Below are positions 1-25,088 of a stretch of 64,000 nucleotides of DNA, piece by piece. The notes beneath the pieces are model-generated. The model was not told the DNA's origin and did no database searches. It saw nothing but the letters and a program-made list of their open reading frames with translations. The stretch lies in the IMG/VR virus record IMGVR_UViG_3300025129_000005; one strand, given 5' to 3'. The stretch comes from a virus. Taxonomy: Duplodnaviria > Caudoviricetes. The stretch's first letter is position 1, and every line of letters begins with the position of its first letter. A program made the translations under genes and the position numbers.

Positions 1-1415
1 GTGTCAACAATCGGTGTTGTTATTAAAGTTTCATCCGCTGATAATATAGTGTGATCTGTTGTCCCATCCTGTATCAGAATTCCGTAATATTTTTTTATTT
101 TTGACAAATCGATATAATTCATATCTTCTGATAATAATGTCAAACCTTCGCCACCATCATAAACTTGAATTGATGTAATAACATCAACATCAGATTCATA
201 CAAAGGTGCGACCCCTATACCGGATGAAATAAAAGATCCAATATCTTGATAGGCATATACATAAGAAGAGGGCGATATATCTCTTCCCTGAAAATACAAA
301 GATTCTGTAATATAACCATCCAAAGGCATAACATCATCAACGGGACCATAAAAATCCTCACACCCCATAATTCTAGCGTCATAGTTTTGGTTATTTACAA
401 TTCTTCCGTTGAGATTTGTACAGTTAATAAGTTTACAATTTTTCGATACAATAATATCACCTTTATCAAAAACACAATCAACAAAGACATTATTACTATA
501 CATATACCCAATATCAAAATAACATCCAATTGCATAGAGTTTGGCAATATAAACTCCATTTAAACTCATAAAATTACAATTAATGGCTTGGCTACCAGCA
601 CCTTTTCCTGTTGTGGCAAATTCATTAAAATCCCCTCCATAAAAATCAAAAGTATCAAGATTATATGACATTGACACATAATAATTCCATTGATTTAACG
701 TAATACTACTTGATCTGTGAGAAAAAAATTCAACATTCTGGTTTATTATCTCTTGACCATCAACAGTCATCGCGAAATTCTTAAATTCTATACGACAATT
801 CTTTGAAACTCTCCAACCAATTTCTTCAACAAAATCAATAACATCGTTATGGTCTTCTATGGTCAAGAATGTACCAGACTCATCAATGGATTGTATTCTA
901 AAATATACTATTCCTTCACCAAGTTCTATGTAATCACCCACTTCAATGCGATAAGGTGTAAGTGAAGTTAAACCATCAGATGCAAGAGTATTCCAATTAA
1001 AATTATCAGCATAAACTCTATCGCCACCTAAACTACAGGAAATAGTCTTATAACCCGATTGTATAATTGTAGGAGGATTAACAGAATAATCATAGTAGTT
1101 TTGATAATCCTTATCATAATAAATTTTCATATTATGAAAAGTAGCGCCGTCATTAATAATAACTTTCGTTGTACTTCTACTCACACCATGGATACGTAAT
1201 ACGTCATCTGGTCTGTTATTCATATCCCTAAGTATATCTCTGGTTAACACGTGATTACCTTCTCGCAGAAAAATATTCCAGTCACCGGCATCATATGCAT
1301 CGTTGATTGAAGTGTAATCCCCTTTACCAGATAAATCAACAACCTTCCATTCCCCTGTCATTGGGTGAAGTGTTGTTTTTTTGTCTTTTATATAAAAATC
1401 ATTTAATTCTGACAT
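1..1415 (-). CDS. Third paralog of the tandem fibre/tailspike-like family, truncated by the window edge (absent from the ORF track)
   Basis: ATG at 1415 after an AAGGAG RBS. I translated both ends by hand: N-term MSELNDFYIKDKKTTLHPMTGEWKVVDLSGKGDYTSINDAYDAG, and YYGILIQDGTTDHTIL near the window start; both align with the two neighbouring paralogs. The middle was not checked codon by codon. Confidence 0.85.
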   Translation of the reverse strand, partial: MSELNDFYIKDKKTTLHPMTGEWKVVDLSGKGDYTSINDAYDAGDWNIFLREGNHVLTRDILRDMNNRPDDVLRIHGVSRSTTKVIINDGATFHNMKIYYDKDYQNYYDYSVNPPTIIQSGYKTISCSLGGDRVYADNFNWNTLASDGLTSLTPYRIEVGDYIELGEGIVYFRIQSIDESGTFLTIEDHNDVIDFVEEIGWRVSKNCRIEFKNFAMTVDGQEIINQNVEFFSHRSSSITLNQWNYYVSMSYNLDTFDFYGGDFNEFATTGKGAGSQAINCNFMSLNGVYIAKLYAIGCYFDIGYMYSNNVFVDCVFDKGDIIVSKNCKLINCTNLNGRIVNNQNYDARIMGCEDFYGPVDDVMPLDGYITESLYFQGRDISPSSYVYAYQDIGSFISSGIGVAPLYESDVDVITSIQVYDGGEGLTLLSEDMNYIDLSKIKKYYGILIQDGTTDHTILSADETLITTPIVD

Positions 1416-1435
1416 TATTATCTCCTTGAAAATAA

Positions 1436-3097: not shown

Positions 3098-3128
3098 TAC
3101 GTTCTCCTACTTTCATGTGAATGATTGA

Positions 3129-4811: not shown

Positions 4812-4853
4812 ACAAGTGCGCCTCCTGTAATATAAAGAACTATGTCTTATGTA

Positions 4854-4861
4854 TATTTATG
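4854..4861 (-). promoter_or_regulatory. T4 late-promoter-like box CATAAATA
   Basis: One mismatch to TATAAATA, upstream of 4811. Confidence 0.5.
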
Positions 4862-4881
4862 AAAAAAAATAAATACACAAA

Positions 4882-4908
4882 AACCCTGACCAGTAAATGA
4901 TCAGGGTT
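4882..4908 (-). terminator. Intrinsic terminator
   Basis: AACCCTGA/TCAGGGTT stem followed by a T-run on the minus strand, downstream of NADAR. Confidence 0.6.
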
Positions 4909-4936
4909 ATAAAACGGAAGGGTGACGATATTATTA

Positions 4937-5440
4937 TTATTTGATGTAATGGGATCGTATTCTTTCTCGTATCAACATCAAAATTTTACCAAGAAAATTA
5001 TTTTTGGTATAACCGATACAATTAACACAGTAACAATGACCCCAATAGCAGTCATGCCACCAGTTACCTTCGATCAGTCTATCATCACCTGTATTCAATA
5101 ATTTTTCGCGTAATATCTTATCACTGAATTTCTCGACAATAATATCATACATAACAGAAACTTTTATTTTGTCCCAATCGTCACGCTTTTTTATTTTCTG
5201 ACCAAGCTTCTTTGATTCTTTGGGACTCAATTTAACAAATTCTTGGTGTAATTTTATATCCAAAGACTTATGTGCTTGATATGCGGTCTCAGATGAAGAA
5301 TATGTTAACCCTTTATAAGTCACCGGATTTTCATAAAAATTACTTAACCAATTGTATTCATTATGAAATTGTTTAACCGAATTCACAAAATTAACACCCC
5401 CTGAAAGGGTCTGTCCCGGTAAACCACTCCTTTTGATCAA
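4937..5440 (-). CDS. NADAR (YbiA-like) family hydrolase; true start probably GTG at 5386
   Basis: Motifs WLSNFY, SSETAYQAHK, KF..LREKLLNTG..LIEGN.WHD.YWG and NFLGKILMLIR are characteristic of NADAR. Confidence 0.9.
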   Translation of the reverse strand: MIKRSGLPGQTLSGGVNFVNSVKQFHNEYNWLSNFYENPVTYKGLTYSSSETAYQAHKSLDIKLHQEFVKLSPKESKKLGQKIKKRDDWDKIKVSVMYDIIVEKFSDKILREKLLNTGDDRLIEGNWWHDCYWGHCYCVNCIGYTKNNFLGKILMLIRERIRSHYIK

Positions 5441-6136: not shown

Positions 6137-6428
6137 GATTAAATTTATCTACTACCAGCATAATACCGTAAACAATTAACAATACGACAACAAACAGAAG
6201 GATAATTGATAGCAATACTAACAATGATCCAAGGACTACCGACAACGGAATCCATATAGGTGCTAATACAATAACCCAGCTAATGTCTGCTATACCGGTA
6301 ATTTTAATGATAGCCAAAATAAATAACATAATCCATAAAATATTTCCACTATAAAGTTCTGTAGAATTTTCTACAGTCTCATCCGGTTCAACAGTTTCAC
6401 TTGTTTTAACTTCATATTTAAATGACAT
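6129..6428 (-). CDS. Membrane protein (2-3 TM)
   Basis: Long hydrophobic stretches; AAGGA RBS. Confidence 0.7.
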   Translation of the reverse strand: MSFKYEVKTSETVEPDETVENSTELYSGNILWIMLFILAIIKITGIADISWVIVLAPIWIPLSVVLGSLLVLLSIILLFVVVLLIVYGIMLVVDKFNHD

Positions 6429-6596
6429 AATAATTCCTTTTTAATTTAAAATCCATTGGTGTTTCTTTTTAAAAGAACATCGGAAGATACGGAATGTATT
6501 GGTAGTAATAAGAAAAATAAAACACAATGTCAGCGGCACAATTGTATAGAGCGTTCTTCATTATAAATCTCCTTATGTTAGATTTGTTTGGTATTT

Positions 6597-6899
6597 TTAC
6601 CGAAGGTAGGCTGGACCGTAAGGACCCATAGTCGCAAGACCATTCTTCTCATCAAAAATGTTTCCCCTTGAATGTTTCGCGGGTTTCGACCAGCCCGCTG
6701 GCTTAAGAACATTACCGTTGGTCATATCAACAAAAGAATGAACACTCGAACCATTGATAACTTTGACGTACCTGTGACCAACTTTATAATCAAAGACACT
6801 CTTTTCGTGGATGAAACCGTTATTTTCCCAATATTGATCAAAAATATCTTTACATCCTTGGAGATACAGATCAAAAGACTTTTTAAATTCGGGGGTCAT
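6597..6899 (-). CDS. Conserved phage hypothetical protein (probably early)
   Basis: RYVKV..SVHSFVD..G.VLKPAGW.KPAKH.RGNIFD motif, which I recognise from large myoviruses; has its own sigma70-type promoter. Confidence 0.7.
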   Translation of the reverse strand: MTPEFKKSFDLYLQGCKDIFDQYWENNGFIHEKSVFDYKVGHRYVKVINGSSVHSFVDMTNGNVLKPAGWSKPAKHSRGNIFDEKNGLATMGPYGPAYLR

Positions 6900-6942
6900 C
6901 TTTTTTTTCCTTTCTCAAGGGGTTTTCGTCACCAACAAATAT

Positions 6943-9386: not shown

Positions 9387-10307
9387 TTATACCCTCTTAC
9401 GTCTACGAATATTTACGGTATCTGACGTTTTTGGAATATTATTTTTTATAAAGTCTCTCAGGTCATCCCAATTCAACATTTCATTTTCGAAATCTTTACT
9501 TGATTTCATGGGTTTACCTGACTCCTTAACGTTTATATATTTAAAGCTTTTGATTATAAAGGTCTTATCTTTGCTGTATTTTCCTATTTGTTCTATTCTT
9601 TCTCCGGGTTGTTGTATGTACTTATTTTTACCCTTCATCGTCTCTTTGGTATCACCTGTTGTCATATACACGGTGTTTTTGTTACCACCAAGAATAATAT
9701 TTATATCACCATCTATATGAGTTCCTATAATGTTATATTTATGTCTTAATATATCCGTAACTGTATTTGCGGCTCCAGAATGAGTTTTTAGCATAATATC
9801 ATAAGGAACCCTTCTTTCCCGTGTTTTATTTTGTTCCACTGCTACATAGAAGTCTGTCAGCACCCATGTTAAATGAACATCTTTTGGTTTATATCCCACT
9901 TCTAATAATTGAGGTATAATTTCAGTTATATCATTTATATCTTTCAACGTTACATCAAACATTATATTAGGTAGATTATTTTTTGATGCGCCTGCTAGAA
10001 GTAATTCAAGAGTTTCGTCTTTCCACCCTTTATCTTTTACAAATTGATGTAATCTTTTAATGTCATCTGGATTACTCCAAACTGTATTAGCAATTTCAGG
10101 ATTTTCTTTCTTTAGCTTTGATATTTTAACTGCCATTTTTTTTAATTCATCCACATCTCTGACCTTAAACTTGTTTTTTTCCATGAAATTGGACGAGGAG
10201 AATCCCTTTCCGCTCCCGGCACCTCCAGCGAGAAAAACAATTTGACCGTATGACTTTCCCCCGCCAACGATAATTTGTTTTTCTGTAATATAACTTTCAA
10301 AACGCAT
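9387..10307 (-). CDS. Zeta-toxin-like P-loop kinase with CTS-like tag
   Basis: IVFLAGGAGSGKG Walker A, VRDVDE, IMFDVT and AVEQNKTRERRVP follow the zeta/AAA_33 pattern; starts MRFESYITE. Confidence 0.75.
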   Translation of the reverse strand: MRFESYITEKQIIVGGGKSYGQIVFLAGGAGSGKGFSSSNFMEKNKFKVRDVDELKKMAVKISKLKKENPEIANTVWSNPDDIKRLHQFVKDKGWKDETLELLLAGASKNNLPNIMFDVTLKDINDITEIIPQLLEVGYKPKDVHLTWVLTDFYVAVEQNKTRERRVPYDIMLKTHSGAANTVTDILRHKYNIIGTHIDGDINIILGGNKNTVYMTTGDTKETMKGKNKYIQQPGERIEQIGKYSKDKTFIIKSFKYINVKESGKPMKSSKDFENEMLNWDDLRDFIKNNIPKTSDTVNIRRRKRV

Positions 10308-10343
10308 GATAAGACCCCTAATGTTATGATTGGTATTTAATGT

Positions 10344-10351
10344 TATTTATA
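10344..10351 (-). promoter_or_regulatory. T4-type late promoter TATAAATA
   Basis: Exact consensus upstream of 10307. Confidence 0.75.
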
Positions 10352-10355
10352 AAAA

Positions 10356-10385
10356 AATAGGGGTGACCCGAAGACCACCCCTATT
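10356..10385 (-). terminator. Intrinsic terminator
   Basis: AATAGGGGTG/CACCCCTATT stem with a minus-strand T-run. Confidence 0.75.
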
Positions 10386-10408
10386 GTATTACATTATATT
10401 ATAATGTT

Positions 10409-11974
10409 TTATTTAAAAACTACGGTAGGATCTTGTTGAAAGGATCCTTCGCGGTTATGTCCATCACCAAAATCAGCGCCATCATAACATGCACCGGCAA
10501 TCCATACATGACCTGCTGATATACAGTCTGCCTTTGTGGTAAGGACACTGTGATCAGAATCGGCAATACATGTACGAAGACCTGAATTCCAACGGTGACC
10601 GTATTGTTTACATGTCAACTCTGCGTATTGGAGAGCGGATGACGTGGTATTATAGTTAAAATTAACAAGACTAAAATTACCCGGCGTACTTGCATCAATA
10701 CACTCCGAACCAGCAACTGCTTTAGGCTCCCAATGATTACCTGATGCTATACATTCATCACGTTTGATTTGGGTGGATGATTGAGTCAAAGCATTAACTT
10801 CTGCCGCAGTATACTTTGTGCAACCAGTTCCACCATCAAATTTATATCCAACAGGGCAGTCGTCGTCGGATGCCGCGACTAGGGTGCAAACACCGCCACC
10901 CGAAACATACTCATTAACAGTCAGACCTGAAATTGCATTACATCCGGCTTGGTCATCGGTTGATCCAAGAGCAACAGGGTCAAATGTAACAGGGAGATCT
11001 TGACAATATCCATAATCACCTTGATTAGCATCACCTGTGTTGTTTGTTCCCGGATTCCAGAAAAATCCGTTTGCCTGACAGCGTGATTTGTCCACGATAT
11101 CTTCTGCGCGAACGGTATTTCCAACTACATATCCATTTTTATCGACAATTGTTGGTTCTGCGTATACAGTAACATTCCCGTTTACAATAGCAACCGTTTT
11201 TTTCTGAACAGACAATTGAGCCATATCAGGTTTTCTGACGGTTTTGATTGTAGGAGTATTATCTGTGGTATAAGGTGGAATTGTATATGATCCACTAGGA
11301 GTATATGAAGATGTTGTGTTGGGTGACAAATCTGCGTTTGTATATTCCGTAACTACCCCACCCAATTCATATAGATTATGATTAACATAATCTGTGGACG
11401 GAATTCCAACTTCACCTGTTCCTATATACGAGATTGTTTCAGTATCACCATCAACATAATTGATACCGGCATTAACAACGGTAAATCCAGAAACCACTCC
11501 AGCGTTCGCTGTTACTGTACCAGTAAGACCGGTACCAACAAGATCCGATTCAAGTTCATTAACAGAAATGATATCTCCTGTTAACCAACCAGTTCCACCA
11601 TCAGTAACAGTAACTGTATTAACCGCACCAGTGACAGATGATACGGTACTGTCGATAGTTCCTGTGTCTGCATCAGAAAAATCCAAAGATTCTGCGAGAG
11701 TGATTGAATCTCCTACAGCATATCCAATACCTTTTGTTACGATACTCAGTGTTGGGACAAGACCTGCGGTAACTTCCAGAGATACAGTACAGCCAGTACC
11801 ACCACCATCGGTTGTTGTTGCATAACCTAAACCACTATTATCATAAACACCTTCTACAAGTACTCCGCCAGCATTATCAACGGTTGCGCCTAAGCTAGTT
11901 GGTTCACCAACGATAGTGGTGATTGTAAACACAAAAGGTGTTACGGGACGATTTGATTGTTGACCTAAAGACAT
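10409..11974 (-). CDS. Putative virion surface protein: Gly-rich beta repeats plus Cys-rich C-x3-G-x2-W repeats
   Basis: GGTG..V....G.GY..GD repeats in the N-terminal half; CQANGFFW, CIASGNHW, CKQYGHRW and CISAGHVW in the C-terminal half; late promoter. Confidence 0.65.
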   Translation of the reverse strand: MSLGQQSNRPVTPFVFTITTIVGEPTSLGATVDNAGGVLVEGVYDNSGLGYATTTDGGGTGCTVSLEVTAGLVPTLSIVTKGIGYAVGDSITLAESLDFSDADTGTIDSTVSSVTGAVNTVTVTDGGTGWLTGDIISVNELESDLVGTGLTGTVTANAGVVSGFTVVNAGINYVDGDTETISYIGTGEVGIPSTDYVNHNLYELGGVVTEYTNADLSPNTTSSYTPSGSYTIPPYTTDNTPTIKTVRKPDMAQLSVQKKTVAIVNGNVTVYAEPTIVDKNGYVVGNTVRAEDIVDKSRCQANGFFWNPGTNNTGDANQGDYGYCQDLPVTFDPVALGSTDDQAGCNAISGLTVNEYVSGGGVCTLVAASDDDCPVGYKFDGGTGCTKYTAAEVNALTQSSTQIKRDECIASGNHWEPKAVAGSECIDASTPGNFSLVNFNYNTTSSALQYAELTCKQYGHRWNSGLRTCIADSDHSVLTTKADCISAGHVWIAGACYDGADFGDGHNREGSFQQDPTVVFK

Positions 11975-12028
11975 AATATTTCCTCCATATTATATTAATA
12001 TTATTTTTACCCAAAAGGGTCTTATTTT

Positions 12029-12036
12029 TATTTATA
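12029..12036 (-). promoter_or_regulatory. T4-type late promoter TATAAATA
   Basis: Exact consensus upstream of 11974. Confidence 0.75.
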
Positions 12037-12060
12037 AAAATATGAATATATTTTTTATAA

Positions 12061-12324
12061 TTAGAGGGAGATTATATGGGATAACTTCATGTTAACATTG
12101 ACTTTTTCAGCATCTATACCTAACTCATCAATAATATAAAATGCTATTAGACCGGGTAAATGTATGCTAGGATTACCTACATACATTTTATAAACTTCTT
12201 CTAAGGTGGAGTTTTCAGAGACCATCGCAATTTGTTCTGATAGAGTAATAAGGGGAGTTTCCATATCAAGAGTGTTGTATGTCACTCCCCAATTATTTTT
12301 TATGATTTTTAATAATTTTTTCAT
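12061..12324 (-). CDS. Hypothetical protein, probably leaderless
   Basis: 87 aa; ATG 7 nt after a TATAAT box; no SD. Confidence 0.6.
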   Translation of the reverse strand: MKKLLKIIKNNWGVTYNTLDMETPLITLSEQIAMVSENSTLEEVYKMYVGNPSIHLPGLIAFYIIDELGIDAEKVNVNMKLSHIISL

Positions 12325-12390: not shown

Positions 12391-12624
12391 TTATCGAGGT
12401 GCTACGGTTGATACTGCGACACTACCACTTTTCACGGGTTTTGATTTACTTTTTACAGACTCTTCTGAATCATCATCATCACTTTTCTTTTTCTTTTTAT
12501 TGATGATGTTATTACGTGTCTGTAATTTAGCAACATCCCCGGTAGTTGTTCCGGTTGAAATTCCTGTAGGTGTACCAGATATTTCTTCCCCTATGTATGT
12601 ACTAATCCTTTCCAATATATCCAT
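12391..12624 (-). CDS. Small hypothetical protein, possible internal head protein
   Basis: Starts MDILERISTYIGE; charged low-complexity tail. Confidence 0.55.
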   Translation of the reverse strand: MDILERISTYIGEEISGTPTGISTGTTTGDVAKLQTRNNIINKKKKKSDDDDSEESVKSKSKPVKSGSVAVSTVAPR

Positions 12625-12633
12625 GATATCCTC

Positions 12634-13434
12634 TTATGGTAGTGCCGGTATAGGATTAACAATCACAGGATCAACCACAACAGGATCAACCACAACAGGA
12701 TTAACGACTGTTGGTGTTGCTGTTTGATTTTCATAATCGTTACGATTATCGCTGTTATTGCTGTTATCACTGTTATCAGACAAATCATTTCCTTGATTGC
12801 TGTTATTACTGTTATCAGACAAATCATTTCCTTGATTGCTGTTATTACTGTTATCAGACAAATCATTTCCTTGATTGCTGTTATCACTTTGATTATTATA
12901 GCTATCAGCAATAGGAGATGTAGATGTCGTTGCTACACCATTAACACCATTGTTAACCGCTTGATCTCCTCCAGCAGTGTATACAGTAGATCTGGTTCCC
13001 ATAGCTCCTGTAACCCTATCCACAGCAAACCCCATTAAAGTGAATCGTGCTATATCTTTTACGACACCAAATCCCTCTTTTACCACAGAAGACTCTACAG
13101 GGGAATATCCATTTGTGGATGCTATAGCATGTAAGCCTGTTATTTCTGCGGTTTTGTCTGCTTTGTTGATAATTCCTTGACCGATAAATACTGTTTTTAA
13201 TTTACCTTCATCATCGGTTTCTACAAGAAAACCTGCACTTGAGTATTTACCATCGAGTTGTGATGGTTGTGGTTTTGGTGCGGCGGCTTTTGCTTCTTCG
13301 ATTGCTTGTATCGCCTCTATTCTTTTTTGGTCAAATTCTATTTTTTTCATCTGAACATCATTGAAATTCGTACCACATCCAACTAATAAAAAGATCATGA
13401 TAAAGCTTATTACATATTTGATATAATTCATCAT
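12634..13434 (-). CDS. Lipoprotein with Asn/Ser-rich tandem repeats
   Basis: Signal peptide with lipobox LVG-C; 13-aa repeat x3; PVVVD repeats. Confidence 0.8.
   Translation of the reverse strand: MMNYIKYVISFIMIFLLVGCGTNFNDVQMKKIEFDQKRIEAIQAIEEAKAAAPKPQPSQLDGKYSSAGFLVETDDEGKLKTVFIGQGIINKADKTAEITGLHAIASTNGYSPVESSVVKEGFGVVKDIARFTLMGFAVDRVTGAMGTRSTVYTAGGDQAVNNGVNGVATTSTSPIADSYNNQSDNSNQGNDLSDNSNNSNQGNDLSDNSNNSNQGNDLSDNSDNSNNSDNRNDYENQTATPTVVNPVVVDPVVVDPVIVNPIPALP
12770..12886. repeat. 39-bp tandem repeat x3 (coding)
   Basis: Unit CTGTTATCAGACAAATCATTTCCTTGATTGCTGTTATTA; one change in the third copy. Confidence 0.95.
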
Positions 13435-13443
13435 TTCACTCCT

Positions 13444-14052
13444 TTATATAGATTTAATTACTGACTGCAAATCATCAAGACCGAATAATCTTGCTATGCC
13501 ATGCATCAATTGCTTTAATTTATTCTTAACTTCATCGCCTGCCTCTTTTGCCGCATCTGTTAGGTTGGTTATGGCATTTTTAGCTTTAGTTAACATATCT
13601 TCACTTTTGGTTTTTATGTGTGCCCATATATGCCATCCAGTAACAGCGTCTATGAGATGTAAGGGTCCCGATACTAGATGAAGGGTTGCCATATCAAGTT
13701 TTAGAAGAAAATCCAAAACCTGTTCTTTTGTTATTTGGGTGTTGGCTAATTCTTTCATTCGAACTTTTGAATCTTCATTACCAGCAGCAGCCCGAAGTGT
13801 GTGCCAGATAAATTCTGCCATTAACTTTCCAGATTTGAGTGCGACCTGAATAAGACCGTCACCTGATTTATGTGCCCCTCCACCTATACTTTTAAGTAAG
13901 GCACCAGCCCCTTTTTTAAGGGTATTGAGATCGAATGCCTCGTTCATATTCGCGCTATCATCAAGTATCATTGATATTTCTAATACAATCTCCATGTCTC
14001 TATATTCCTCATGGGTGTATAGTCTCTGATTAATTTTGTTTAAAATATCCAT
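13444..14052 (-). CDS. Putative internal head protein, paralog of 8564..9085
   Basis: Starts MDILNKIN; MNE/A candidate gp21 site; shares KE.(I/V)..F...(I/L)D...L...S.P.H with 8564..9085. Confidence 0.55.
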   Translation of the reverse strand: MDILNKINQRLYTHEEYRDMEIVLEISMILDDSANMNEAFDLNTLKKGAGALLKSIGGGAHKSGDGLIQVALKSGKLMAEFIWHTLRAAAGNEDSKVRMKELANTQITKEQVLDFLLKLDMATLHLVSGPLHLIDAVTGWHIWAHIKTKSEDMLTKAKNAITNLTDAAKEAGDEVKNKLKQLMHGIARLFGLDDLQSVIKSI

Positions 14053-14119
14053 TAATTATAATCTCCTTCTACTGTATTAATATAACTATCAATCAGGATT
14101 ATATGACATCATTTACATG

Positions 14120-14572
14120 TCAGATTCCTGATTTATCTTCGTACATCTTCCATTTACTTTGTTCTTTTTTGGGAATGCGCTCATACGTTTCTTCTGGGGT
14201 CAGCCATTTTATTGAGTTTTTACTGGTTAATTCGATAGTGTCCTTCCAAGGATTTACAATATAAATATCTTTTCCATTTTTATCAGCATATTCACATTCA
14301 CGCCATGTACCATTACCCATTTTACCGTCTTTAAATGTCATAGCACATACATGTTCAACTGTATCAATAACTTTAAAGAATATATCAAACCCCATATCAT
14401 CAACTCGACCTTGTATCCAGTTAACATTGGGATTAACAATAATAAATTCTGGAAATTTTTCTGTTATGATGTTGATGGATTTTTTTTCTTCTGGTTTGTC
14501 ATAAAATGCACGTGGATGTGCAAAATATATTTTACGGCGGTTAGCCTCGGTTAAATAGTTGCTAAACTTCAT
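14120..14572 (-). CDS. Nucleoside 2-deoxyribosyltransferase (NDT)/N-glycosidase-like protein with CTS-like tag
   Basis: KIYFAHP strand 1 and GTWRECEYADKNGKDIY match the NDT KIYLAGP / GT..E..YA...GK pattern, including the catalytic Glu. Confidence 0.7.
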   Translation of the reverse strand: MKFSNYLTEANRRKIYFAHPRAFYDKPEEKKSINIITEKFPEFIIVNPNVNWIQGRVDDMGFDIFFKVIDTVEHVCAMTFKDGKMGNGTWRECEYADKNGKDIYIVNPWKDTIELTSKNSIKWLTPEETYERIPKKEQSKWKMYEDKSGI

Positions 14573-15642: not shown

Positions 15643-16136
15643 TATGCCTCTAAAGCGTAACTCTCTAGTACCTTTTCCCCTGCTATATAATTTCTTGATG
15701 CTGATATTACCGAATCAGCCCCTATATCAGGTTTACGACCGACTACAGGGCATGATTGTCCATCAGTAACTGTCAAATTACTATCAACTGTTATATCATA
15801 CACGCCTGTTTTGTTGTTTCTGTATATTGAAGTTACTGTTGCAACATTAGAGCCGTCAGTGATAACAAATCGACCTATACCAGTAAAACCGGTGTCCATT
15901 CTGGTATCAAAATTCACAAAATTTGCAGTGAATGTTGTTCCTGCTATAACACCCGTATCAACTCTTAGAAATAATCCTGAGTTTTTCCATTCAGTGTTGT
16001 CTATTGATACTATACCTACACCTAATCCATCATAGTCCAACGAATCAAGTTTAGTGTTTAATGTTATAGGGATAGATGTAATGAATGGTTCTGTGTATCC
16101 CGTTCCTTGATAACCGTTTTTTCCTAAGTCGGCCAT
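15642..16136 (-). CDS. Putative virion structural protein
   Basis: Beta-rich 164 aa directly downstream of a late promoter; GGAGG RBS. Confidence 0.55.
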   Translation of the reverse strand: MADLGKNGYQGTGYTEPFITSIPITLNTKLDSLDYDGLGVGIVSIDNTEWKNSGLFLRVDTGVIAGTTFTANFVNFDTRMDTGFTGIGRFVITDGSNVATVTSIYRNNKTGVYDITVDSNLTVTDGQSCPVVGRKPDIGADSVISASRNYIAGEKVLESYALEA

Positions 16137-16174
16137 ATTATAAAATCCTCCGTTTAATATATAATGTTCATATG

Positions 16175-16194
16175 TATTTATAAAAACATAAATA
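16175..16194. promoter_or_regulatory. Back-to-back late promoters: TATAAATA (-, 16175-16182) and CATAAATA (+, 16187-16194)
   Basis: Located at the strand switch between the two gene blocks. Confidence 0.75.
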
Positions 16195-16224
16195 CACTTA
16201 ACTGGTAGAGTGAGGAGTTAATAT

Positions 16225-16734
16225 ATGAAATTTGGTACATTTATTTTAAACGAAAATATGATAGATAAATCCAAATCATTTTTAAAAAAAATGGATTTTT
16301 CAAAGTCAAAGAATTTCCTTAAAAATGAATTTGATAAGTTTGTGCATGCATCGATATCCAGTGGTATAGAAGAACAGGTTATATCTCTGATCAACAAAGC
16401 CTTTGGTACACATTTTCGTAATCTAAACCAACTAAAAAAAGAAAGATTGAAAGAATCGGATGAATTGATTAACGAAGACCTTGCTCATTGGTGGGATGTA
16501 GTTAAAACAGAGGCATTTCCTACCTTAGCATTTTATCCGGCATTAACGGTTTGGTTAGAGATTGATAAACTGTTCAAAATGCAGGACATGGATATAACTA
16601 AAACTATTGTGTATTCTTTGTTTTGGATATTACTTATAAGCGGTAAATACGTAAAGGGTTGGTCACAATGGAAAAAACAAAACCCTGATGAATATAATGC
16701 TGAAAGGTTACAAGGTAAAGGAGGAATAATATAA
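16225..16734 (+). CDS. Putative internal head protein with hydrophobic C-terminal half
   Basis: Starts MKFGTFILNE; LKE/S and INE/D candidate gp21 sites. Confidence 0.55.
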   Translation: MKFGTFILNENMIDKSKSFLKKMDFSKSKNFLKNEFDKFVHASISSGIEEQVISLINKAFGTHFRNLNQLKKERLKESDELINEDLAHWWDVVKTEAFPTLAFYPALTVWLEIDKLFKMQDMDITKTIVYSLFWILLISGKYVKGWSQWKKQNPDEYNAERLQGKGGII

Positions 16735-16911
16735 TTAGTAAAATCGGAAGGCTATTAAAACGATTGGGTTGAATATGGATGTTGACACTAAAACACTCAC
16801 AGATCCAACGATACTTTGAAACGTTGGTATGACGATACATCAAAAATGGATACAGGAATAAGAAAATTACAAGATAAACTGATTCATAGTGAAATAAAAA
16901 AATGAGGCTTA

Positions 16912-17304
16912 TTGGAGGATAAAATGGATTTATTGAATAAGATTGATATGTTTGTTGGTTATACTGTTGAGGATATCAACGAGGAAACTGAGTACCAAAA
17001 ATTTTTCAAAAAGAAGTTGAAGGCATATAATATATCTTCACCTTCTGAACTTGATGACGAAAAGAAGAAGAAATTCTTTGATGAGATTAAAAAAGAGTGG
17101 ACTTCTGGCAAAGGTGAGAAAAAAACCAACGAAGGTGAACTACCACCCGCATTGAAGAAGGCCATTGAAGCGAAAAAGAAGAAAGATGGTGATGATGGTG
17201 ATGGGGAAGAGGGTGAGTCCAAAAAACATGAAGACTCTGAGTCTGATAAAGAAGAAAAAGAGGAACACAAGAAAGGATCTAAAAAAGACAAAGCCGATAA
17301 ATAA
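16912..17304 (+). CDS. Putative prohead core/internal protein (true start probably ATG 16924)
   Basis: INE/E site; YQKFFKKKLK...SPSEL..KKKFF..I..EW and GELPPALKKAI motifs familiar from T4-like head-region proteins; highly charged. Confidence 0.55.
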   Translation: MEDKMDLLNKIDMFVGYTVEDINEETEYQKFFKKKLKAYNISSPSELDDEKKKKFFDEIKKEWTSGKGEKKTNEGELPPALKKAIEAKKKKDGDDGDGEEGESKKHEDSESDKEEKEEHKKGSKKDKADK

Positions 17305-17780
17305 TGAACAATCGTTCTATTAAGAGTCATATAACATCAGGTTGTACAAAGTATGTCCCTGTATACCCTGAGAAGTATAAAGGCAAACCACCCATTATAT
17401 GTAGATCGGGTTGGGAAGAGGTATTCTGTCGATGGGCTGATCACTCAGGAGGCATCAAATCTTGGGCGAGCGAAGAGGTTTCGATTAGATATCAAGACCC
17501 CATTCAGCCCATCAAGAATAATAAACCACATTTCAAGACCTATTGGCCTGATTATGTGATTGAGACAATACATGATGAGATATATCTTATTGAGGTCAAG
17601 CCCTTTAAGTATACAAAACCACCAACAAAAAACAAGAATAAATCTCGAAAGACAATTATGACTGAGAACAAATCTTGGTTGGTTAATCAGGCTAAATGGA
17701 AAGCAGCCGACGTATACTGTTTTAAGAAGGGCTGGATATTTAAAATAATCACGGAAAAGGAATTATTTGGGAAATTATAA
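17304..17780 (+). CDS. gp4: Head completion nuclease gp4
   Basis: KYKG..PIICRSGWE..FC.W.D....WASEE..I.Y...Y.PD....LIEVKP...NQAKW.AA..C..GW.F.IITE. Confidence 0.9.
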   Translation: MNNRSIKSHITSGCTKYVPVYPEKYKGKPPIICRSGWEEVFCRWADHSGGIKSWASEEVSIRYQDPIQPIKNNKPHFKTYWPDYVIETIHDEIYLIEVKPFKYTKPPTKNKNKSRKTIMTENKSWLVNQAKWKAADVYCFKKGWIFKIITEKELFGKL

Positions 17781-18298
17781 TGGCTATTAGGGTAATCATG
17801 AGAAAGAATTTCCAGAATGTCGCATGGCGTTCTGGTCATATCTATAAATTTAAATATCAGGCATGGTCGAATGATCCAGAACCTGTGATAATTCTAATGT
17901 ATGCGTTGAGTGGTACACATCCTAACACTGGTCATGAGTGGAGATTTTTTCAGGGAATAAATTTCACTTATATAGATAGGTCTCATCGCAGACAATTTGC
18001 AAAGTCATGGGTCAGGGAATGGGAAACTACAGGTGGAAGTTTTCAGTTCACCTATGAGAGGGTGAAGAGACAATATCCCTATCTACAGACGGCGGTTAGG
18101 AGGTATTTCTTTAGCCCTGCTTATTATATACAAAACCCTATAGAAGTGCCATTAGAGGATATAGAAAGTGTCATTGTTAGTACATGGTCTAAAGATTTTA
18201 GTAAAAAATTAAGAACCAATCTTGTTCAAAAGTTTAAAGGGGCAAAACAAAGAATTGCACAGGGGTTGGAGACAGGTATATTCAAATCAAGACGATGA
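17780..18298 (+). CDS. gp2: DNA end protector gp2-like
   Basis: GHIYKFKY...P.P.I....F.GINF.Y; follows gp4 as in T4-like phages. Confidence 0.7.
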   Translation: MAIRVIMRKNFQNVAWRSGHIYKFKYQAWSNDPEPVIILMYALSGTHPNTGHEWRFFQGINFTYIDRSHRRQFAKSWVREWETTGGSFQFTYERVKRQYPYLQTAVRRYFFSPAYYIQNPIEVPLEDIESVIVSTWSKDFSKKLRTNLVQKFKGAKQRIAQGLETGIFKSRR

Positions 18299-18528
18299 AA
18301 TATGTAAAGTTAAACTTGACATTTGGGGATAAACTTAAAATGTTGTTATTTGGTTTGGTGCCAGAGGACAAACTCCCCGTCAAAGAAGTCGTCCGTGAAG
18401 ATATTGTCGAAAATGAGATTCGGCGTGTATATAATGACCATAAAGAAGTTATAAATACAAAAGATGATGAGAAATTTCATGTTCCATTTTTTGAGTTACA
18501 AGACGATGACGTGAAGAGTAATTTCTAA
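18295..18528 (+). CDS. Hypothetical protein
   Basis: 77 aa, overlapping in the operon. Confidence 0.6.
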   Translation: MKYVKLNLTFGDKLKMLLFGLVPEDKLPVKEVVREDIVENEIRRVYNDHKEVINTKDDEKFHVPFFELQDDDVKSNF

Positions 18529-18997: not shown

Positions 18998-20113
18998 ATG
19001 TATGATATCGACAATATGATATTTCAGGATAAGGAGAAAATAGAAATGAGTGATACACAAACTGTTACCGAAAAAAGAACCGTTGTGAAAAGTGAAACTA
19101 AGGCTAAGAAAAACAAGCCGGGTATTGGATTAGATGTTGGTACAGGGTTTCTTGTTGGCGCGGGTTATGATGGAGCAAAAGTAAAATTCGCACCTCTCAG
19201 GGACGCATTTTATACTTTAGATAAAGATACATTTAATCGTTCAATGTTTGATAAGGGTAGTATGAAATATATAGAAATAGGTGGTAGTGTTCATGTTATT
19301 GGTGAGGATGCGTTAACTCTTGCCAAGATTAGAAATACTTCTGCCTCTCGTCCTTTGAGTGAAGGTGTAATTAACCCTAAAGAAAGGAATGCTGCACCTA
19401 TTTTAAAAGAAATGTTCAGATATTGTGTACAACCATTCATAAATCGAGAAGGAGAGACAATAGTTTTTTCTGTGCCTGCACAAAAGATTGGTGATGAAGG
19501 ATTTAACGTTGATTATCACTCTATGTCTATACAGTCATTGGCAAAAACCTTTGGACTTAATGCGGTACCTTTAAACGAAGCGTATGCTGTAATTCTTTCT
19601 GAGATGGAAAGTACTGATGATGTTACTGGATTAGGGTTTTCTTTCGGCGCAGGTTTAGTAAATGTGTGTTTTGTGTATAAATCTATGTTGTTGTTTGAAT
19701 TCAGCATAGGAAAATCAGGTGATTTTATTGATACAGAATCAGCAAAAGCGTGTGGAATTTCCACTTCTGTAATAAATCATATTAAAGAGAAGGAATTAGT
19801 TTTGACAGCTGATGAATTTTCTGCCTCTCCTGAAATTAGAGCGTTGATTTTTACTTATAGATACGTGATTAAGAATACCCTAAAAGAGGTACTCAGAGCA
19901 TTTACTACAACAAGTGATATTAATGTTATTGATCCAATTCCGATTGTTATTTCAGGTGGAACGAGTATTCCAGAGGGGTTTATTGATTTATTTCAAGAAG
20001 AGCTTAAAAACGTTAACTTGCCGTTCAAGGTAACAGAAGTTATCCCGGCTAAAAATAGGTTGGCGGCGGTTGCGCATGGCTGTTTGATCTGGGCGAACCA
20101 CCTAGAAAAATAA
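18998..20113 (+). CDS. Actin-like ATPase (actin/Hsp70 superfamily; ParM/MreB/MamK-like)
   Basis: Phosphate-1 GLDVGTG, connect NEAYA, phosphate-2 FSFGAG, adenosine ISGGTS, C-terminal AVAHGC. Confidence 0.85.
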   Translation: MYDIDNMIFQDKEKIEMSDTQTVTEKRTVVKSETKAKKNKPGIGLDVGTGFLVGAGYDGAKVKFAPLRDAFYTLDKDTFNRSMFDKGSMKYIEIGGSVHVIGEDALTLAKIRNTSASRPLSEGVINPKERNAAPILKEMFRYCVQPFINREGETIVFSVPAQKIGDEGFNVDYHSMSIQSLAKTFGLNAVPLNEAYAVILSEMESTDDVTGLGFSFGAGLVNVCFVYKSMLLFEFSIGKSGDFIDTESAKACGISTSVINHIKEKELVLTADEFSASPEIRALIFTYRYVIKNTLKEVLRAFTTTSDINVIDPIPIVISGGTSIPEGFIDLFQEELKNVNLPFKVTEVIPAKNRLAAVAHGCLIWANHLEK

Positions 20114-20126
20114 GAGAGAGGTAGTT

Positions 20127-20495
20127 ATGTCAGATGACAAAACGCCCATTCATTCCGAAGGCTGGAAGCAATGGTCAATGCAGGTAAAAGAGTCCCTTGA
20201 AAAATTAGAGAAGAAAGTAGAATTGTTAGAGGGTCGTACTACAAAACACAGAGAAGAATTTTTAGTTGAAACAACTACGCTAAAGGTTAAAGCTGGTGTT
20301 GTAGGTACGGTTGCAGGTATTATAGCATCTTTGGTGACTACTATTATGGGGGGTTTTATTGTATACCAGTTAACTACCGCTAGACATAGTAGCCCCCCTG
20401 AAACCTACAAACATCCATCACAGACAGAGCAGCCAGTCGGTATGATATCCCCTAGCTCACTAAATATTTTGAATATAAAGGGGGATATTAGCTAA
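20127..20495 (+). CDS. Coiled-coil plus single-TM protein (holin/XhlA-like)
   Basis: W..W...V..SLEKLEKKV coiled coil, then Gly-rich TM KAGVVGTVAGIIASLVTTIMGGFIVY. Confidence 0.55.
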   Translation: MSDDKTPIHSEGWKQWSMQVKESLEKLEKKVELLEGRTTKHREEFLVETTTLKVKAGVVGTVAGIIASLVTTIMGGFIVYQLTTARHSSPPETYKHPSQTEQPVGMISPSSLNILNIKGDIS

Positions 20496-21622
20496 TGGGG
20501 TGGATTGATAATTTATCGAGACGTATCGGCGAAAGAAAGGTTAAATCAATGATAGAAAAGGAACATCAGGAAACTCCTATGCCAGATATCAAAAAAGATC
20601 TTGATGACCTTGAAGAGTTGAGATTACAGTTGGTAAAAAAAGACGAGGAACTCGAAAAAACTCGCCTCGAATGGGATCGGACTTTTGATTCAATCATCGA
20701 TAACATAGTATTAATTGACAGGGATATGTGTATAACAAAGGCTAACAATTCTTTCCATGATTGCATGGAAAGAGAGGTTGGTCATATAGAATATCTGGGT
20801 ATGAGATGGTCTGATTTTAGAAGCATTTCGGGTATACCAAGTGACGTATGTCCTGTAGAAAGATGCTTTGAAACCGGAGTTCATCAAGAAGCAACTATTC
20901 CGATTCGAGGTAAAATAGTGGCTGTCACGGTTAATCCTATATATATTAACACAACAATGGGTAAAGAGATACTTGGTGTCGTTCGTGTATCAAGAGATAT
21001 AACCTCTGTGGAGAAGATTAAAACCACATTAGAGAGACGATCTACTATATACCACGCTATATCAGAAATGAGTAAAATATTAGTTAATCATAGGAATTGG
21101 AGTTCTGCTGTTAATTTGATCCTTGGTGATCTCGGTAGAGCAATAGGTGCTAGCAGGGTATATATTTTTAAAAATGAAATAAGGGGTGATTGTATCTGTT
21201 CAATCCGACAGAGTGTTTTTCATAACAAACAAAGGGATTATTGTGATTCTGGTGATTTAACTGATTGTATTAATTATGATTTATTACCGGAATGGCGTTC
21301 TAAAATGGAACATGGTTTGTCTGTTGAGGGGAGTATCATAGATTGTGATTTGTGTCCCAATAAACATGCATGTAAATGCTCGGATGAGGTCTTGGTTTGC
21401 GCTGTCCCTGTTTTTGTTGATGGTAGCTGGTGGGGTTTTATTGGATTTGACTATCAGAACGGAACACGTATTTGGAAGGACGAGGATGCCACTTTGTTAC
21501 GAATTGCGGCAGATATCCTTGGTGGCGTCATTTATCACCGCAGTAGATATTTTGATGCTTTGAATGCTTTGAATGGTTTGGAAGATTGTGTAGATGAACT
21601 GGTTCATGAAAGGGAATTATAG
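20495..21622 (+). CDS. Stand-alone coiled-coil-PAS-GAF sensor protein with no output domain
   Basis: EWDRTFDSIIDNIVLID...KAN...CP...C...VRVSRDIT (PAS with DIT motif); LGRAIGASRVYIF...AVPVFVDGSWWGFIGFD...W..EDATLLRIAADILG (GAF). Confidence 0.9.
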   Translation: MGWIDNLSRRIGERKVKSMIEKEHQETPMPDIKKDLDDLEELRLQLVKKDEELEKTRLEWDRTFDSIIDNIVLIDRDMCITKANNSFHDCMEREVGHIEYLGMRWSDFRSISGIPSDVCPVERCFETGVHQEATIPIRGKIVAVTVNPIYINTTMGKEILGVVRVSRDITSVEKIKTTLERRSTIYHAISEMSKILVNHRNWSSAVNLILGDLGRAIGASRVYIFKNEIRGDCICSIRQSVFHNKQRDYCDSGDLTDCINYDLLPEWRSKMEHGLSVEGSIIDCDLCPNKHACKCSDEVLVCAVPVFVDGSWWGFIGFDYQNGTRIWKDEDATLLRIAADILGGVIYHRSRYFDALNALNGLEDCVDELVHEREL

Positions 21623-23916: not shown

Positions 23917-24174
23917 ATGGGCGTATATCCAATGTGGATGAATAGAAGGGGCTGTAAACCCATTACTATCGAAATCCCTGTCCCCGGTAACGGCGGTAGT
24001 GGAGGTGGCGGTAGTGGAGGTGGCGGTAGTGGAGGTGGCGGTGGTGCAGTTATACCAATAAAACAACCACTCCCTAAAGTAAGGATTAAGAAAGTCATCG
24101 TAATGGATGAGTATGAACATATGAATGTAACGGTATTACAGGTAATTGACCTGTCATTGAATGGAGGAATATAA
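23917..24174 (+). CDS. Small protein with (GGGGS)-type linker
   Basis: 85 aa with GGSGGGGSGGGGSGGGGG. Confidence 0.65.
   Translation: MGVYPMWMNRRGCKPITIEIPVPGNGGSGGGGSGGGGSGGGGGAVIPIKQPLPKVRIKKVIVMDEYEHMNVTVLQVIDLSLNGGI
23992..24042. repeat. 15-bp tandem repeat GGCGGTAGTGGAGGT x3.4
   Basis: Exact copies in sequence. Confidence 0.95.
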
Positions 24175-24719: not shown

Positions 24720-25088
24720 GTGGAGGTTTGTAATATGAAGTTTGCGTTAGGTGAAATCCGAGGAATGAAAGATCCTCTTACGGTGTTAATCGAAAAGCAG
24801 ATACCCATTAAAGCGGCGTGGAAACTAAATCGTCTCATTAAGTCTTTTGATAAAGAACTCGGAGAAATCGAAGAATTTCGTGTTAACCTAGTTCAAAAAC
24901 TAGGCGATACGGGTGAGGACGGTAATATACAAGTACCTAAAGATAAAATGTCAATTTTTGTAGAAGAGTTCAATGAACTTCTTTCTCAAGAAGTTGATAT
25001 TGAATTTGATCCAATTGATATTGATGTTTTCGGTGATGTCTCGCTCAGTGCCAAGGATATGTTATTGTTAGATAAAATTTTTAAATAG
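24720..25088 (+). CDS. Helical phage protein (DUF1617-like); true start probably ATG 24735
   Basis: L..L....IPIKAAWKL.R.IK....EL..IEE.R..L..K.G pattern. Confidence 0.55.
   Translation: MEVCNMKFALGEIRGMKDPLTVLIEKQIPIKAAWKLNRLIKSFDKELGEIEEFRVNLVQKLGDTGEDGNIQVPKDKMSIFVEEFNELLSQEVDIEFDPIDIDVFGDVSLSAKDMLLLDKIFK

Follow-up and report, generated by a model that had tools for sequence, protein, structure and literature searches.

What use would a T4-like phage from an aquifer have for a sensor protein that ends without an output domain, and why should the gene for this sensor be tied to that of a small membrane protein? The two genes lie next to one another in the 64,000-nucleotide stretch of viral DNA analysed here (the window), where a first reading made from the sequence alone had described a holin-like ORF with a single transmembrane (TM) helix, running into a gene for a coiled coil-PAS-GAF protein. 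Both ORFs and both architectures were confirmed (Table 1), as was the TAATG overlap, in which the TAA stop codon of the membrane gene (20493-20495) shares one base with the ATG of the sensor gene (20495-20497), and a Shine-Dalgarno sequence, AAGGGGGA, is found 12 nt upstream of this ATG. The arrangement is not confined to the window: the membrane gene lies directly upstream of the sensor gene in all 13 loci examined, all of them on contigs of T4-like phages, and in each a TM gene of 120-132 aa is followed by the PAS-GAF gene with stop and start overlapping or nearly abutting, the gap being 7 nt in one case. Given this recurrence the pair is more than a chance feature and can be regarded as a conserved, translationally coupled unit in phages, and we propose that the two genes form one functional unit that is made late in infection.

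Table 1. Coordinates of the gene pair and of associated features in the window
Feature	Position	Strand	Basis or remark
77-aa ORF, candidate actin partner	18295..18528	+	present in 7/7 loci with volactin and 0/6 without
TATAAATA, T4-type late-promoter-like	18450..18457	+	sole + strand copy between 14268 and 25246
Volactin-type actin-fold gene	18998..20113	+	PF25216
Membrane-protein ORF	20127..20495	+	122 aa
Predicted cytoplasmic N-terminal part (aa 1-54), Trp motif GW..W then heptad helix	20127..20288	+	conservation
Juxtamembrane TLKVKAG and single TM helix (aa 55-82), small-residue zipper	20289..20372	+	conservation, hydropathy
Variable 40-aa tail, presumably periplasmic, and stop codon	20373..20495	+	alignment
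PAS-GAF sensor ORF	20495..21622	+	375 aa
Sensor N-terminal helices (aa 1-66)	20495..20692	+	AlphaFold2; helix 32-66 is a candidate docking helix
PAS domain (aa 67-169), with C119 and invariant C124	20693..21001	+	PAS_4, AlphaFold2
GAF domain (aa 199-328)	21089..21478	+	Pfam, phmmer, AlphaFold2
GAF Cys cluster (C235, C250, C258, C284, C287, C293, C295)	21197..21379	+	conservation
C-terminal helix past GAF (aa 329-375)	21479..21622	+	AlphaFold2 helix 329-374; no output domain after it

In the membrane protein a single hydrophobic helix (residues 61-79, Kyte-Doolittle 2.03) comes after about 54 hydrophilic residues with a heptad pattern. Over 16 long forms of the protein there is conservation of W13, W16, V20, L27, E28, K30 and V31, whilst K55, A56, G60, G64 and G76 are invariant and the C-terminal tail shows little conservation except for P97. 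Pairs of small residues occur in the TM region at 56/57, 60/61, 63/64, 67/68, 71/72 and 75/76, and this spacing of small residues at every three to four positions along the helix suggests that the protein self-associates in the membrane. There are also short forms of 70-103 aa, which have the GW..W motif and an invariant TLKVKAGVWG and end 3-8 residues past the TM helix without the 40-aa tail. Numbering about 35 in the long form and over 60 in the short, and having in common GW..W, the coiled coil and TLKVKAGVWG, the sequences define what is here newly described as a wide, phage-only family of predicted tail-anchored proteins with the motif TLKVKAGVWG; its members were seen on viral-type contigs only, the nearest Atlas clusters are 91-100% viral and the TM gene has a dN/dS of 0.16-0.27. 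No match was found in 50,697 deposited phage genomes by tblastn for either of two short-form membrane proteins or for the sensor, and neither the membrane protein nor the sensor matched PHROGs at E up to 0.01. An Atlas lead to DUF7201 (PF23831) was dropped when no profile match appeared in five phage records carrying the family at E up to 10. An amphipathic N-terminal helix was likewise rejected, its moment being only at about the 95th percentile of shuffled sequences and not clearly above them, and the C-terminal tail of the membrane protein is not basic, nor was a dual-start motif found.

In the sensor of the window Pfam recognises only two domains, PAS_4 (E 0.0012, 19.5 bits) and GAF (PF01590; E 0.0018, 19.3 bits), both below their curated cut-offs of 23.1 and 22.4 bits respectively. 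The AlphaFold2 model (pLDDT 83.7) consists of helices at residues 2-26 and 32-66, a PAS fold at 70-168, a helix at 170-198, a GAF fold at 202-321 and a last helix at 329-374, and this model, together with Foldseek matches to PAS-GAF proteins, confirms both folds. A precomputed GAF match (PF01590) is present in ~20 relatives of the sensor, six of which also have PAS_4 (PF08448), and from profile and modelled fold the protein is assigned to both the PAS-domain and the GAF-domain proteins. The earlier description of a sensor with no output stands, as Pfam finds no kinase, GGDEF or HTH domain in the 375 aa and the protein ends 47 residues past the GAF; with no Pfam match to HisKA/DHp or HATPase_c it does not classify as a histidine kinase. 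It also has no TM helix, the hydropathy maximum of 1.59 sitting on core strands of the GAF, and in its C-terminal helix ILGGVIYHR is conserved and the remainder variable.

A phmmer search with the sensor returned 6914 proteins, nearly all of them aligned to residues about 165-350, and 1225 at E up to 1e-10 on the same residues. These residues have true sequence homologues in the WWGFIGFD-core GAFs of large bacterial multi-sensor proteins, with which they have in common the motifs LG.A...RVYIF and VPIFV..WWGFIGFD; the cellular GAFs, however, are repeats in proteins of 600-3600 aa that have output domains, whereas the phage sensor has none. The best Swiss-Prot fold matches found with Foldseek are the PAS-GAF input modules of the methanogen sensor kinases MsmS/RdmS and FilI, which cover sensor residues 37-373 with a TM-score by query of 0.57-0.59 at a sequence identity of 16-20%. 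Titles cited in one study (PMC11784639) name MsmS and RdmS as redox sensors based on haem and thiol. Unlike these kinases the phage sensor carries neither a kinase nor any other output, and its cysteine pattern is its own. It had been allowed that the gene could be a recently truncated host gene under relaxed selection, which is excluded by the existence of 37 full-length relatives (38-71% identity, 330-383 aa) and by a pN of 0.19-0.27 against a pS of 0.75-0.84, with synonymous sites saturated; on these comparisons the sensor is under purifying selection and is not a decaying host fragment.

The cysteines of the sensor had been counted as 14, nine of them inside the GAF, which is correct, and they are at positions 79, 90, 119, 124, 233, 235, 250, 258, 284, 287, 293, 295, 302 and 365. 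In the PAS domain C124 is found in 36 of 36 sequences and C119 in 31, and in the GAF the six core cysteines are kept in 33-36 of the 36 sequences and C295 in 26. C235, C250, C258, C284, C287 and C293 are absent from the cellular GAF relatives compared, and in one subclade of sensors three cysteines of the cluster are lost and two gained nearby, as in ligand swapping. As six cysteines are near-invariant, specific to phages and swapped in one subclade, they suggest a metal or redox site; the region of the cluster has a lower pLDDT in the AlphaFold2 model, 64-71.

Is the membrane protein a holin? As a small phage protein with one TM helix it does resemble one, which is the part of the holin-like label that holds; the part that does not is membership, as no member of the family matches a holin family in Pfam or PHROGs, an XhlA-type PHROG being matched only weakly and at the level of architecture. 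No endolysin was seen among the scanned neighbouring genes in the window. A link of the family to lysis is nevertheless plausible, because in two unrelated phages soluble lysozymes are encoded no more than about 1 kb from distant members. In four further phages, none related to another, the TM gene overlaps with or adjoins the gene for a small stand-alone ligand-binding protein, which is a PAS protein in L093/L097, a coiled coil-PAS protein in L114, a PAS-PAS protein in L099 and a Cupin_2 protein in L124. Of the three loci with a sensor partner whose flanks are readable, two, L093 and L124, have a soluble Phage_lysozyme within about 1 kb of the TM gene (E 7e-8 by hmmscan in L124), and the two lysozymes are unrelated to each other. 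A lysozyme search over five more records gave no match, yet it missed the L124 lysozyme that was later found by hmmscan and its negative is therefore unreliable. In a relative of the window phage that is 98% complete there is no match to Phage_lysozyme or Amidase_2, nor, at E up to 1, to Phage_holin_T, and for want of the last the role of holin is unfilled there. The L093 phage, a carrier of the family that is 93% complete, has several other small TM ORFs, so that the family member is not its only holin candidate. Amongst the partner proteins, that of L099 aligns by its N-terminus with residues 33-79 of the window's sensor (hhalign probability 87%, 43% identity), and such an alignment of coiled coils is what would be expected for a shared docking helix; for the PAS partners in L093 and L114 a kinship with the PAS-GAF family was discarded, the likeness being no more than that of generic PAS.

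The sequence-only reading had taken as established a GAF-like fold in the soluble domain of T4 holin T and pictured a split holin/sensor pair as one possibility. Class III (T-type) holins are among the BFVD Foldseek matches of the sensor model (E about 1e-3), the sole and weak support for such a fold; the T4 literature covered does not use the term GAF. A split holin T fails on topology because the soluble domain of holin T is periplasmic and the sensor has no signal peptide. A different likeness is to be found in the control of T, which is a single-pass, N-in holin with a critical cytoplasmic N-terminal helix and is controlled by the soluble cytoplasmic protein RIII (PMC12162936, PMC11413866). 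T has a second, periplasmic regulator in RI. Both systems would consist of a membrane protein and a separate soluble cytoplasmic protein, the latter a prediction for the pair studied here, and both occur in T4-like phages. The two systems differ in several ways: the window's membrane protein has no Pfam profile match to holin T (PF11031, class III), T has a large periplasmic domain where the 122-aa protein has only a variable tail of 40 aa, the soluble partner is a 375-aa PAS-GAF sensor and not the 82-aa RIII, and the T4 system responds to superinfection whereas the signal of the phage sensor would be intracellular.

Two other systems deserve comparison. XhlA of Bacillus subtilis PBSX and SPP1 gp24.1 are also small phage proteins, in which a cytoplasmic coiled coil at the N-terminus is followed by a C-terminal TM anchor, and proteins of this type act in lysis jointly with other proteins. 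One short-form member matches the XhlA-type PHROG 1193 at E 0.002, and an XhlA cluster is found at rank 42 in the Atlas; recurrent weak matches to phrog_1193 and to phrog_1103, of unknown function, at E 0.002-0.6 were treated as compositional. XhlA (PF10779) gave no Pfam match in seven short forms at E up to 1 or in the window's protein at E up to 0.1, and hhalign of SPP1 gp24.1 against both family alignments gave 24 TM columns (probability 55%) or nothing. Homology was rejected, and architecture alone is in common. SPP1 gp24.1 is without the GW..W and TLKVKAGVWG motifs, and no pairing of XhlA proteins with sensor proteins is known. In vibriophage VP882 the protein VqmA-Phi is a phage-encoded PAS sensor through which a small-molecule signal reaches a lysis decision; VqmA-Phi has a DNA-binding output, acts on transcription and belongs to a temperate phage, whereas the sensor described here lacks any output domain and comes from a T4-like phage, in which it is tied to a membrane protein.

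The timing of expression may be indicated by TATAAATA, a putative late-type promoter. In relatives without the actin gene that precedes the pair in the window this sequence is 61-68 nt before the membrane gene, and in four relatives that carry the actin gene it is just upstream of that gene; it is present ahead of the pair or of the preceding actin gene in L001, L009, L007, L010, L011 and L092.

The reading that we tentatively prefer, and which we regard as possible rather than probable, is that of a holin-like lysis unit gated by a sensor, for which T4 holin T and its cytoplasmic antiholin RIII offer the analogy. The 122-aa protein would be a tail-anchored protein of the inner membrane whose N-terminal heptad helix faces the cytoplasm, and the 375-aa protein would be a soluble, probably dimeric PAS-GAF sensor in which the lid of the GAF has been remodelled as a site of six cysteines, which most likely serve a metal or Fe-S centre or act as redox-active thiols, the cofactor being a guess from sequence. 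The sensor may dock with its N-terminal coiled coil on the membrane protein's cytoplasmic helix; a complex prediction for the sensor and membrane-protein residues 1-85 scored 0.00, which counts neither for nor against docking. Responding to redox conditions or a ligand in the infected anaerobic host, the sensor would then restrain or free a holin-like permeabilisation and so set the time of lysis, which would be the logic of T4 holin T and RIII with a genuine sensor replacing RIII.

A broader form of this reading is a modular lysis clock, in which one family of tail-anchored effectors is gated by interchangeable cytoplasmic PAS, PAS-PAS and cupin proteins and, in aquifer phages of the T4 type, by a PAS-GAF protein whose cysteines form a metal or redox centre, and lysis is timed on metabolic or redox state; we consider it rather doubtful, although if true the timing would not depend on holin accumulation or superinfection alone. 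Lysis timing is the main life-history trait of a lytic phage, and to our knowledge what its known regulators (T4 RI and RIII, lambda S107) react to is superinfection or holin dosage, not the internal chemistry of the host. A holin-type effector combined with a small-molecule or redox sensor would, if true, be a new viral way to read the state of the host, one of greatest consequence in subsurface communities that grow slowly and are redox-stratified. Genes of the membrane-protein family are common in phages, many uncultured ones having one between terminase and portal, and unannotated, so that finding their function would supply an annotation in hundreds of genomes, and should the sensor bind a defined ligand or metal the pair could be used as a compact ligand-gated lysis switch.

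Four other explanations have to be weighed against a sensor-gated lysis unit. The genomic position of the family speaks for a role in morphogenesis, with the tail-anchored protein as a membrane anchor or chaperone for portal and prohead assembly or for packaging and the PAS-GAF protein as an accessory or checkpoint. The proheads of T4 start on the inner membrane, and in 62 of the 77 IMG/VR loci of the family the gene, a short form with no sensor or lysin in view, overlaps the stop of TerL and is followed by a T4-type portal, an order also seen in L095 that fits morphogenesis at least as well as lysis. In L099 the pair comes directly after the portal gene, in relatives of the window it immediately follows gp4 and gp2, the head-completion genes, and precedes the portal by 3-6 genes, and other members sit after SU10-type adaptor or portal-like genes. 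Lysis genes amid packaging genes nevertheless have a precedent in T7 genes 17.5 and 18.5, an assembly chaperone would not be expected to have small-molecule sensors as partners or lysozymes adjoining it, and T4 gp40, the known membrane-associated portal chaperone, shows no likeness to the family; having no TM helix, and no match in the genome of a relative, gp40 was set aside as a model for the membrane protein. We consider morphogenesis unlikely, and still more improbable is a membrane effector other than a holin, by which the phage would bring about a late, sensor-controlled change in host membrane physiology, for example control of the proton-motive force or respiration, or exclusion of superinfecting phage. 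It draws on the same coupling and sensor evidence as the lysis reading and would account for the want of a holin family match, but it leaves the closeness of the lysozymes in L093 and L124 unexplained, and the exclusion genes of T4 are early whereas the putative promoter ahead of the pair is of late type.

The suggestion, already made from the sequence, that the sensor is a dominant-negative decoy is weak and we think it very improbable. The output-less PAS-GAF protein would form heterodimers with multi-sensor kinases of the host and silence them, with the membrane protein merely localising it, and it is true that the cellular sequences closest to it are PAS/GAF repeats within sensor proteins of very large size and that the GAF core motifs and a C-terminal helix of signalling type are kept. 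Identity to cellular GAF proteins is, however, only about 22-31%, the cysteine cluster is lineage-specific and found in phages only, the constant partner is encoded by the phage and comes from a family that also pairs with unrelated sensors such as the cupin, and the putative promoter, being of late type, suggests that the gene is expressed too late to serve in host takeover. Slightly less credible again is a cytoskeletal module in which the pair anchors or regulates filaments of the upstream volactin-type actin, and as the core function this is largely refuted; it could at most be an added one. PF25216 matches the product of the upstream gene over profile positions 3-321 of 321 (E 5.8e-59; 200.6 bits, cut-off 35), the gene has 83-89% aa identity among the relatives compared with a dN/dS of about 0.035-0.04, and in bacteria an actin-fold protein is commonly paired with a bitopic anchor, as in PilM-PilN and FtsA-FtsN. 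In 7 of the 13 loci the actin gene adjoins the TM and PAS-GAF genes and is apparently transcribed together with them, down to 50% sensor identity. Against this the actin gene is absent from the other six loci, one of which has a sensor 67% identical to that of the window, and volactin is found nowhere in the 98%-complete, 235-kb relative that has the pair. Of the three genes that it had been suggested might belong to one module, the membrane and sensor genes recur together in all 13 loci, and the actin gene is not part of the core. The actin gene always travels instead with a small ORF of its own, which is 75-93 aa long and has a conserved acidic C-terminus, VPFF-ELQDDDVKSNF.

A T4-like jumbo phage is represented in the window by its late, structural region, with genes for head closure (gp4), DNA-end protection (gp2), the portal, the major head protein, the large terminase and PhoH; the public runs that contain this stretch are aquifer and spring metagenomes. 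The + strand genes around the pair are tightly packed from gp4 to the sensor gene (see table). The sequence-only reading described both ORFs of the pair correctly in every checkable detail: one base is common to the stop of the first and the start of the second (TAATG, with a strong Shine-Dalgarno closely upstream), the first product has one TM helix, and the second is a PAS-GAF protein lacking an output domain, with 14 Cys of which nine lie in the GAF domain.

Features of the window and of other phage loci compared with it (L-numbers)
Locus	Feature	Position	Strand	Remark
window	gp4	17304-17780	+	first in gene row before pair
window	gp2	17780-18298	+	after gp4
window	77-aa ORF	18295-18528	+	after gp2
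window	145-aa ORF	between 77-aa ORF and volactin gene	+	
window	volactin-type actin gene	18998-20113	+	PF25216, E 5.8e-59
window	122-aa membrane-protein ORF	20127-20495	+	directly before sensor ORF
window	375-aa PAS-GAF sensor ORF	20495-21622	+	overlaps 122-aa ORF stop
window	85-aa ORF with Gly/Ser run (GGSGGGGSGGGGSGGGGG)	23917-24174		low complexity; putative coding; Pro-rich ORFs on opposite strand
window	copy of MKF.LGEIRNMKDPL ORF	24720-25088		
L001	prohead protease gene	15704-17416		apparently intein-interrupted
L002	T4-type portal gene	12448-14457		split by intein
L090	T4-type portal gene	10054-12090		split by intein
L099	T4-type portal gene	30-2807		split by intein with HNH endonuclease domain
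L093	trypsin-like protease gene	6222-6911		adjoins tail-anchored protein gene (predicted)
L133	trypsin-like protease gene	3025-3834		adjoins tail-anchored protein gene (predicted)
L124	ECF-type sigma-70-like gene	4683-5234		uncultured phage

The predicted structure of the sensor (model me0a8ee5392fb, pLDDT 83.7) begins with two helices, continues with PAS and GAF domains joined by a linker helix, and ends in a long C-terminal helix; hydropathy and a Pfam scan found neither a TM helix nor an output domain in its 375 residues. A search of 5.8 billion proteins returned 37 relatives, all of 330-383 aa and 38-71% identical; when 1.84 billion representatives were scanned in full, only a handful of sensor-type clusters came up, followed by thousands of cellular proteins that match the GAF part alone (residues ~165-350, ~22-31% identity), mostly as repeats inside sensor proteins of 600-3600 aa. 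At all 13 loci examined a 120-132-aa homologue of the membrane gene lies directly before the sensor gene, the two overlapping or nearly abutting with a single gap, of 7 nt, and gp4 and gp2 are upstream. The possibility raised earlier, that the sensor is a host gene that was truncated recently and is under relaxed selection, is excluded because the pair is conserved in 13/13 loci and pN against four relatives (0.19-0.27) is far below pS (0.75-0.84, synonymous sites being saturated); dN/dS of the membrane gene is 0.16-0.27. Judged by these comparisons, the sensor is a conserved phage protein and not a decaying host fragment.

Among the 36 sensor sequences over which Cys conservation was counted, C124 (in the PAS domain), C287 and C293 are invariant, C250 is kept in 35, C235, C258 and C284 in 33, C119 in 31, and C295 and C90 in 26; the three sequences without C235, C258 and C284 have two new Cys beside C250, making six again in that stretch. 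The core motifs LG.A...RVYIF and VPIFV..WWGFIGFD of the phage sensor recur in cellular GAF homologues, but those compared have none of its conserved Cys. The Cys-bearing segments have the lowest pLDDT of the GAF domain (64-71). Six conserved, lineage-specific Cys that swap positions would be expected if the usual GAF pocket were covered by redox-active thiols or by a metal or Fe-S site. Among reviewed proteins the methanogen sensor kinases FilI and MsmS give the top fold matches, through their PAS-GAF parts; titles cited by PMC11784639 describe MsmS and RdmS as haem- and thiol-based redox sensors.

The 122-aa membrane protein has ~54 hydrophilic residues before its TM helix (residues ~55-82) and 40 after it, and the helix carries paired small residues every 3-4 positions, as is typical of TM helices that pack tightly into oligomers. 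A profile built from 16 long forms retrieved over 60 proteins of 70-88 aa besides ~35 long forms, all with an N-terminal GW..W motif, a heptad helix and an almost invariant TLKVKAGVWG..GG..P where the TM helix begins. Since the short forms stop a few residues past the TM helix, the family is predicted to be tail-anchored with the heptad helix in the cytoplasm. In an IMG/VR scan 77 loci carry the family, and in 62 of these a large terminase gene and a T4-type portal gene flank it and usually overlap it, the other 15 having varied surroundings. The gene for this putatively tail-anchored 70-88-aa protein, wedged between terminase and portal and left without annotation, occurs in many uncultured phages (the 62 loci, L103-L173, and L095).

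At four of the 15 varied loci the gene directly upstream, overlapping or abutting the membrane gene, encodes a small ligand-binding protein: a 135-aa PAS protein (L093/L097), a 172-aa coiled coil-PAS protein (L114; PAS E 1e-14), a 397-aa PAS-PAS protein (L099; E 6e-18) and a 155-aa Cupin_2 protein (L124; E 3e-9). The phages concerned are diverse, with G+C from 24% to 49% and L093 and L124 membrane proteins only 37% identical, and their gene order is reversed relative to the PAS-GAF lineage. The membrane protein is therefore coupled to an output-less sensor in five cases, four with short forms and one in the PAS-GAF lineage. The L099 partner begins with a coiled coil that can be aligned with residues 33-79 of the PAS-GAF family (hhalign 87%, 43% identity), as would be expected of a docking helix common to both. 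We consider it likely that the pair makes up a phage-specific unit of sensor and membrane effector. By their BFVD names, other phages also encode PAS and GAF proteins that stand alone; our literature searches returned no report of either kind coupled to a phage protein resembling a holin.

[quoted passage not shown] By analogy with holin T and RIII, the tail-anchored protein would oligomerise via the small-residue face of its TM helix, its cytoplasmic helix would be required for its membrane action, and the sensor, docked via its N-terminal coiled coil, would hold or release that helix according to the state of the Cys centre or of a bound ligand.

Whether such a unit acts in lysis is a more tentative matter. 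In L093 tail-fibre genes are followed by the PAS gene, the membrane gene, a trypsin-like protease gene and a convergent soluble Phage_lysozyme, and in L124 the cupin and membrane genes are followed by a sigma-70-like gene and, ~1 kb away, a soluble Phage_lysozyme (E 7e-8) unrelated to that of L093. The L114 contig stops right after the membrane gene, and in L099 the portal gene precedes the pair and unknown genes follow it, so a soluble endolysin lies within ~1 kb in two of the three informative sensor-paired loci; on a rough estimate, chance would place one so close in a 50-65-kb genome at a few per cent of loci. TATAAATA, the late-promoter motif of T4, occurs 61-68 nt ahead of the membrane gene in two relatives without the actin gene, just upstream of the actin gene in four that have it, and at 18450 in the window, so the pair is likely expressed late. 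BFVD structural matches of the sensor model include Proteus and Serratia phage holins of class III (T-type; E ~1e-3 to 1e-2), a hint that holin T may have a PAS/GAF-like periplasmic domain. The lysis timer first proposed gains from the neighbouring lysozymes, but neither the membrane protein nor its family has a profile match to any holin family, and most members sit by terminase and portal genes; holin-antiholin-type control of lysis is a possibility to which we give somewhat less than even weight. Homology to the holin-like proteins XhlA and SPP1 gp24.1 was rejected, the likeness being limited to architecture, and holin T has no match in a 98%-complete, 235-kb relative. A role of the membrane protein in morphogenesis, to which that same position beside terminase and portal points, seems to us rather unlikely. 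The other alternative first offered, that the sensor is a decoy of host signalling proteins, is weak because its identity to cellular proteins is low, its Cys site is phage-specific, its partner is itself phage-encoded and the pair lies behind a late-type promoter.

The protease of L093 has a lipoprotein signal (LAIASC) and lies between membrane gene and lysozyme; L093 and L133, which both have such a protease, are unrelated phages.

The upstream actin gene had been suggested as a possible part of the same module. Membrane and sensor genes occur together at all 13 loci, but volactin at only seven; it is missing from one locus whose sensor is 67% identical to that of the window and from the whole of a 98%-complete relative, and does not qualify as a core component. 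The volactin family is named after a Haloferax cell-shape protein. Phage volactin has a conserved 16-residue N-terminal extension and is 83-89% identical (dN/dS ~0.035-0.04) among relatives whose sensors share just 58-70%; its sole matches in deposited phage genomes are in two huge uncultured phages (LR756511, LR745208; ~30% identity). An ORF of 75-93 aa, with an N-terminus like MKYVKLNLSFGDKL and an acidic C-terminus like VPFFELQDDDVKSNF, accompanies volactin at 7/7 loci (the window, where it is the 77-aa ORF, L007, L008, L010, L011, L091 and L092) and is found at 0/6 without it, and may be an adaptor or partner of the volactin filament.

Directly 3' of the pair, relatives L001, L002, L006 and L090 have a conserved 117-122-aa ORF with the N-terminus MKF.LGEIRNMKDPL; in the window ~3 kb of extra genes (481, 277, 85 and 163 aa) lie between the pair and its copy.
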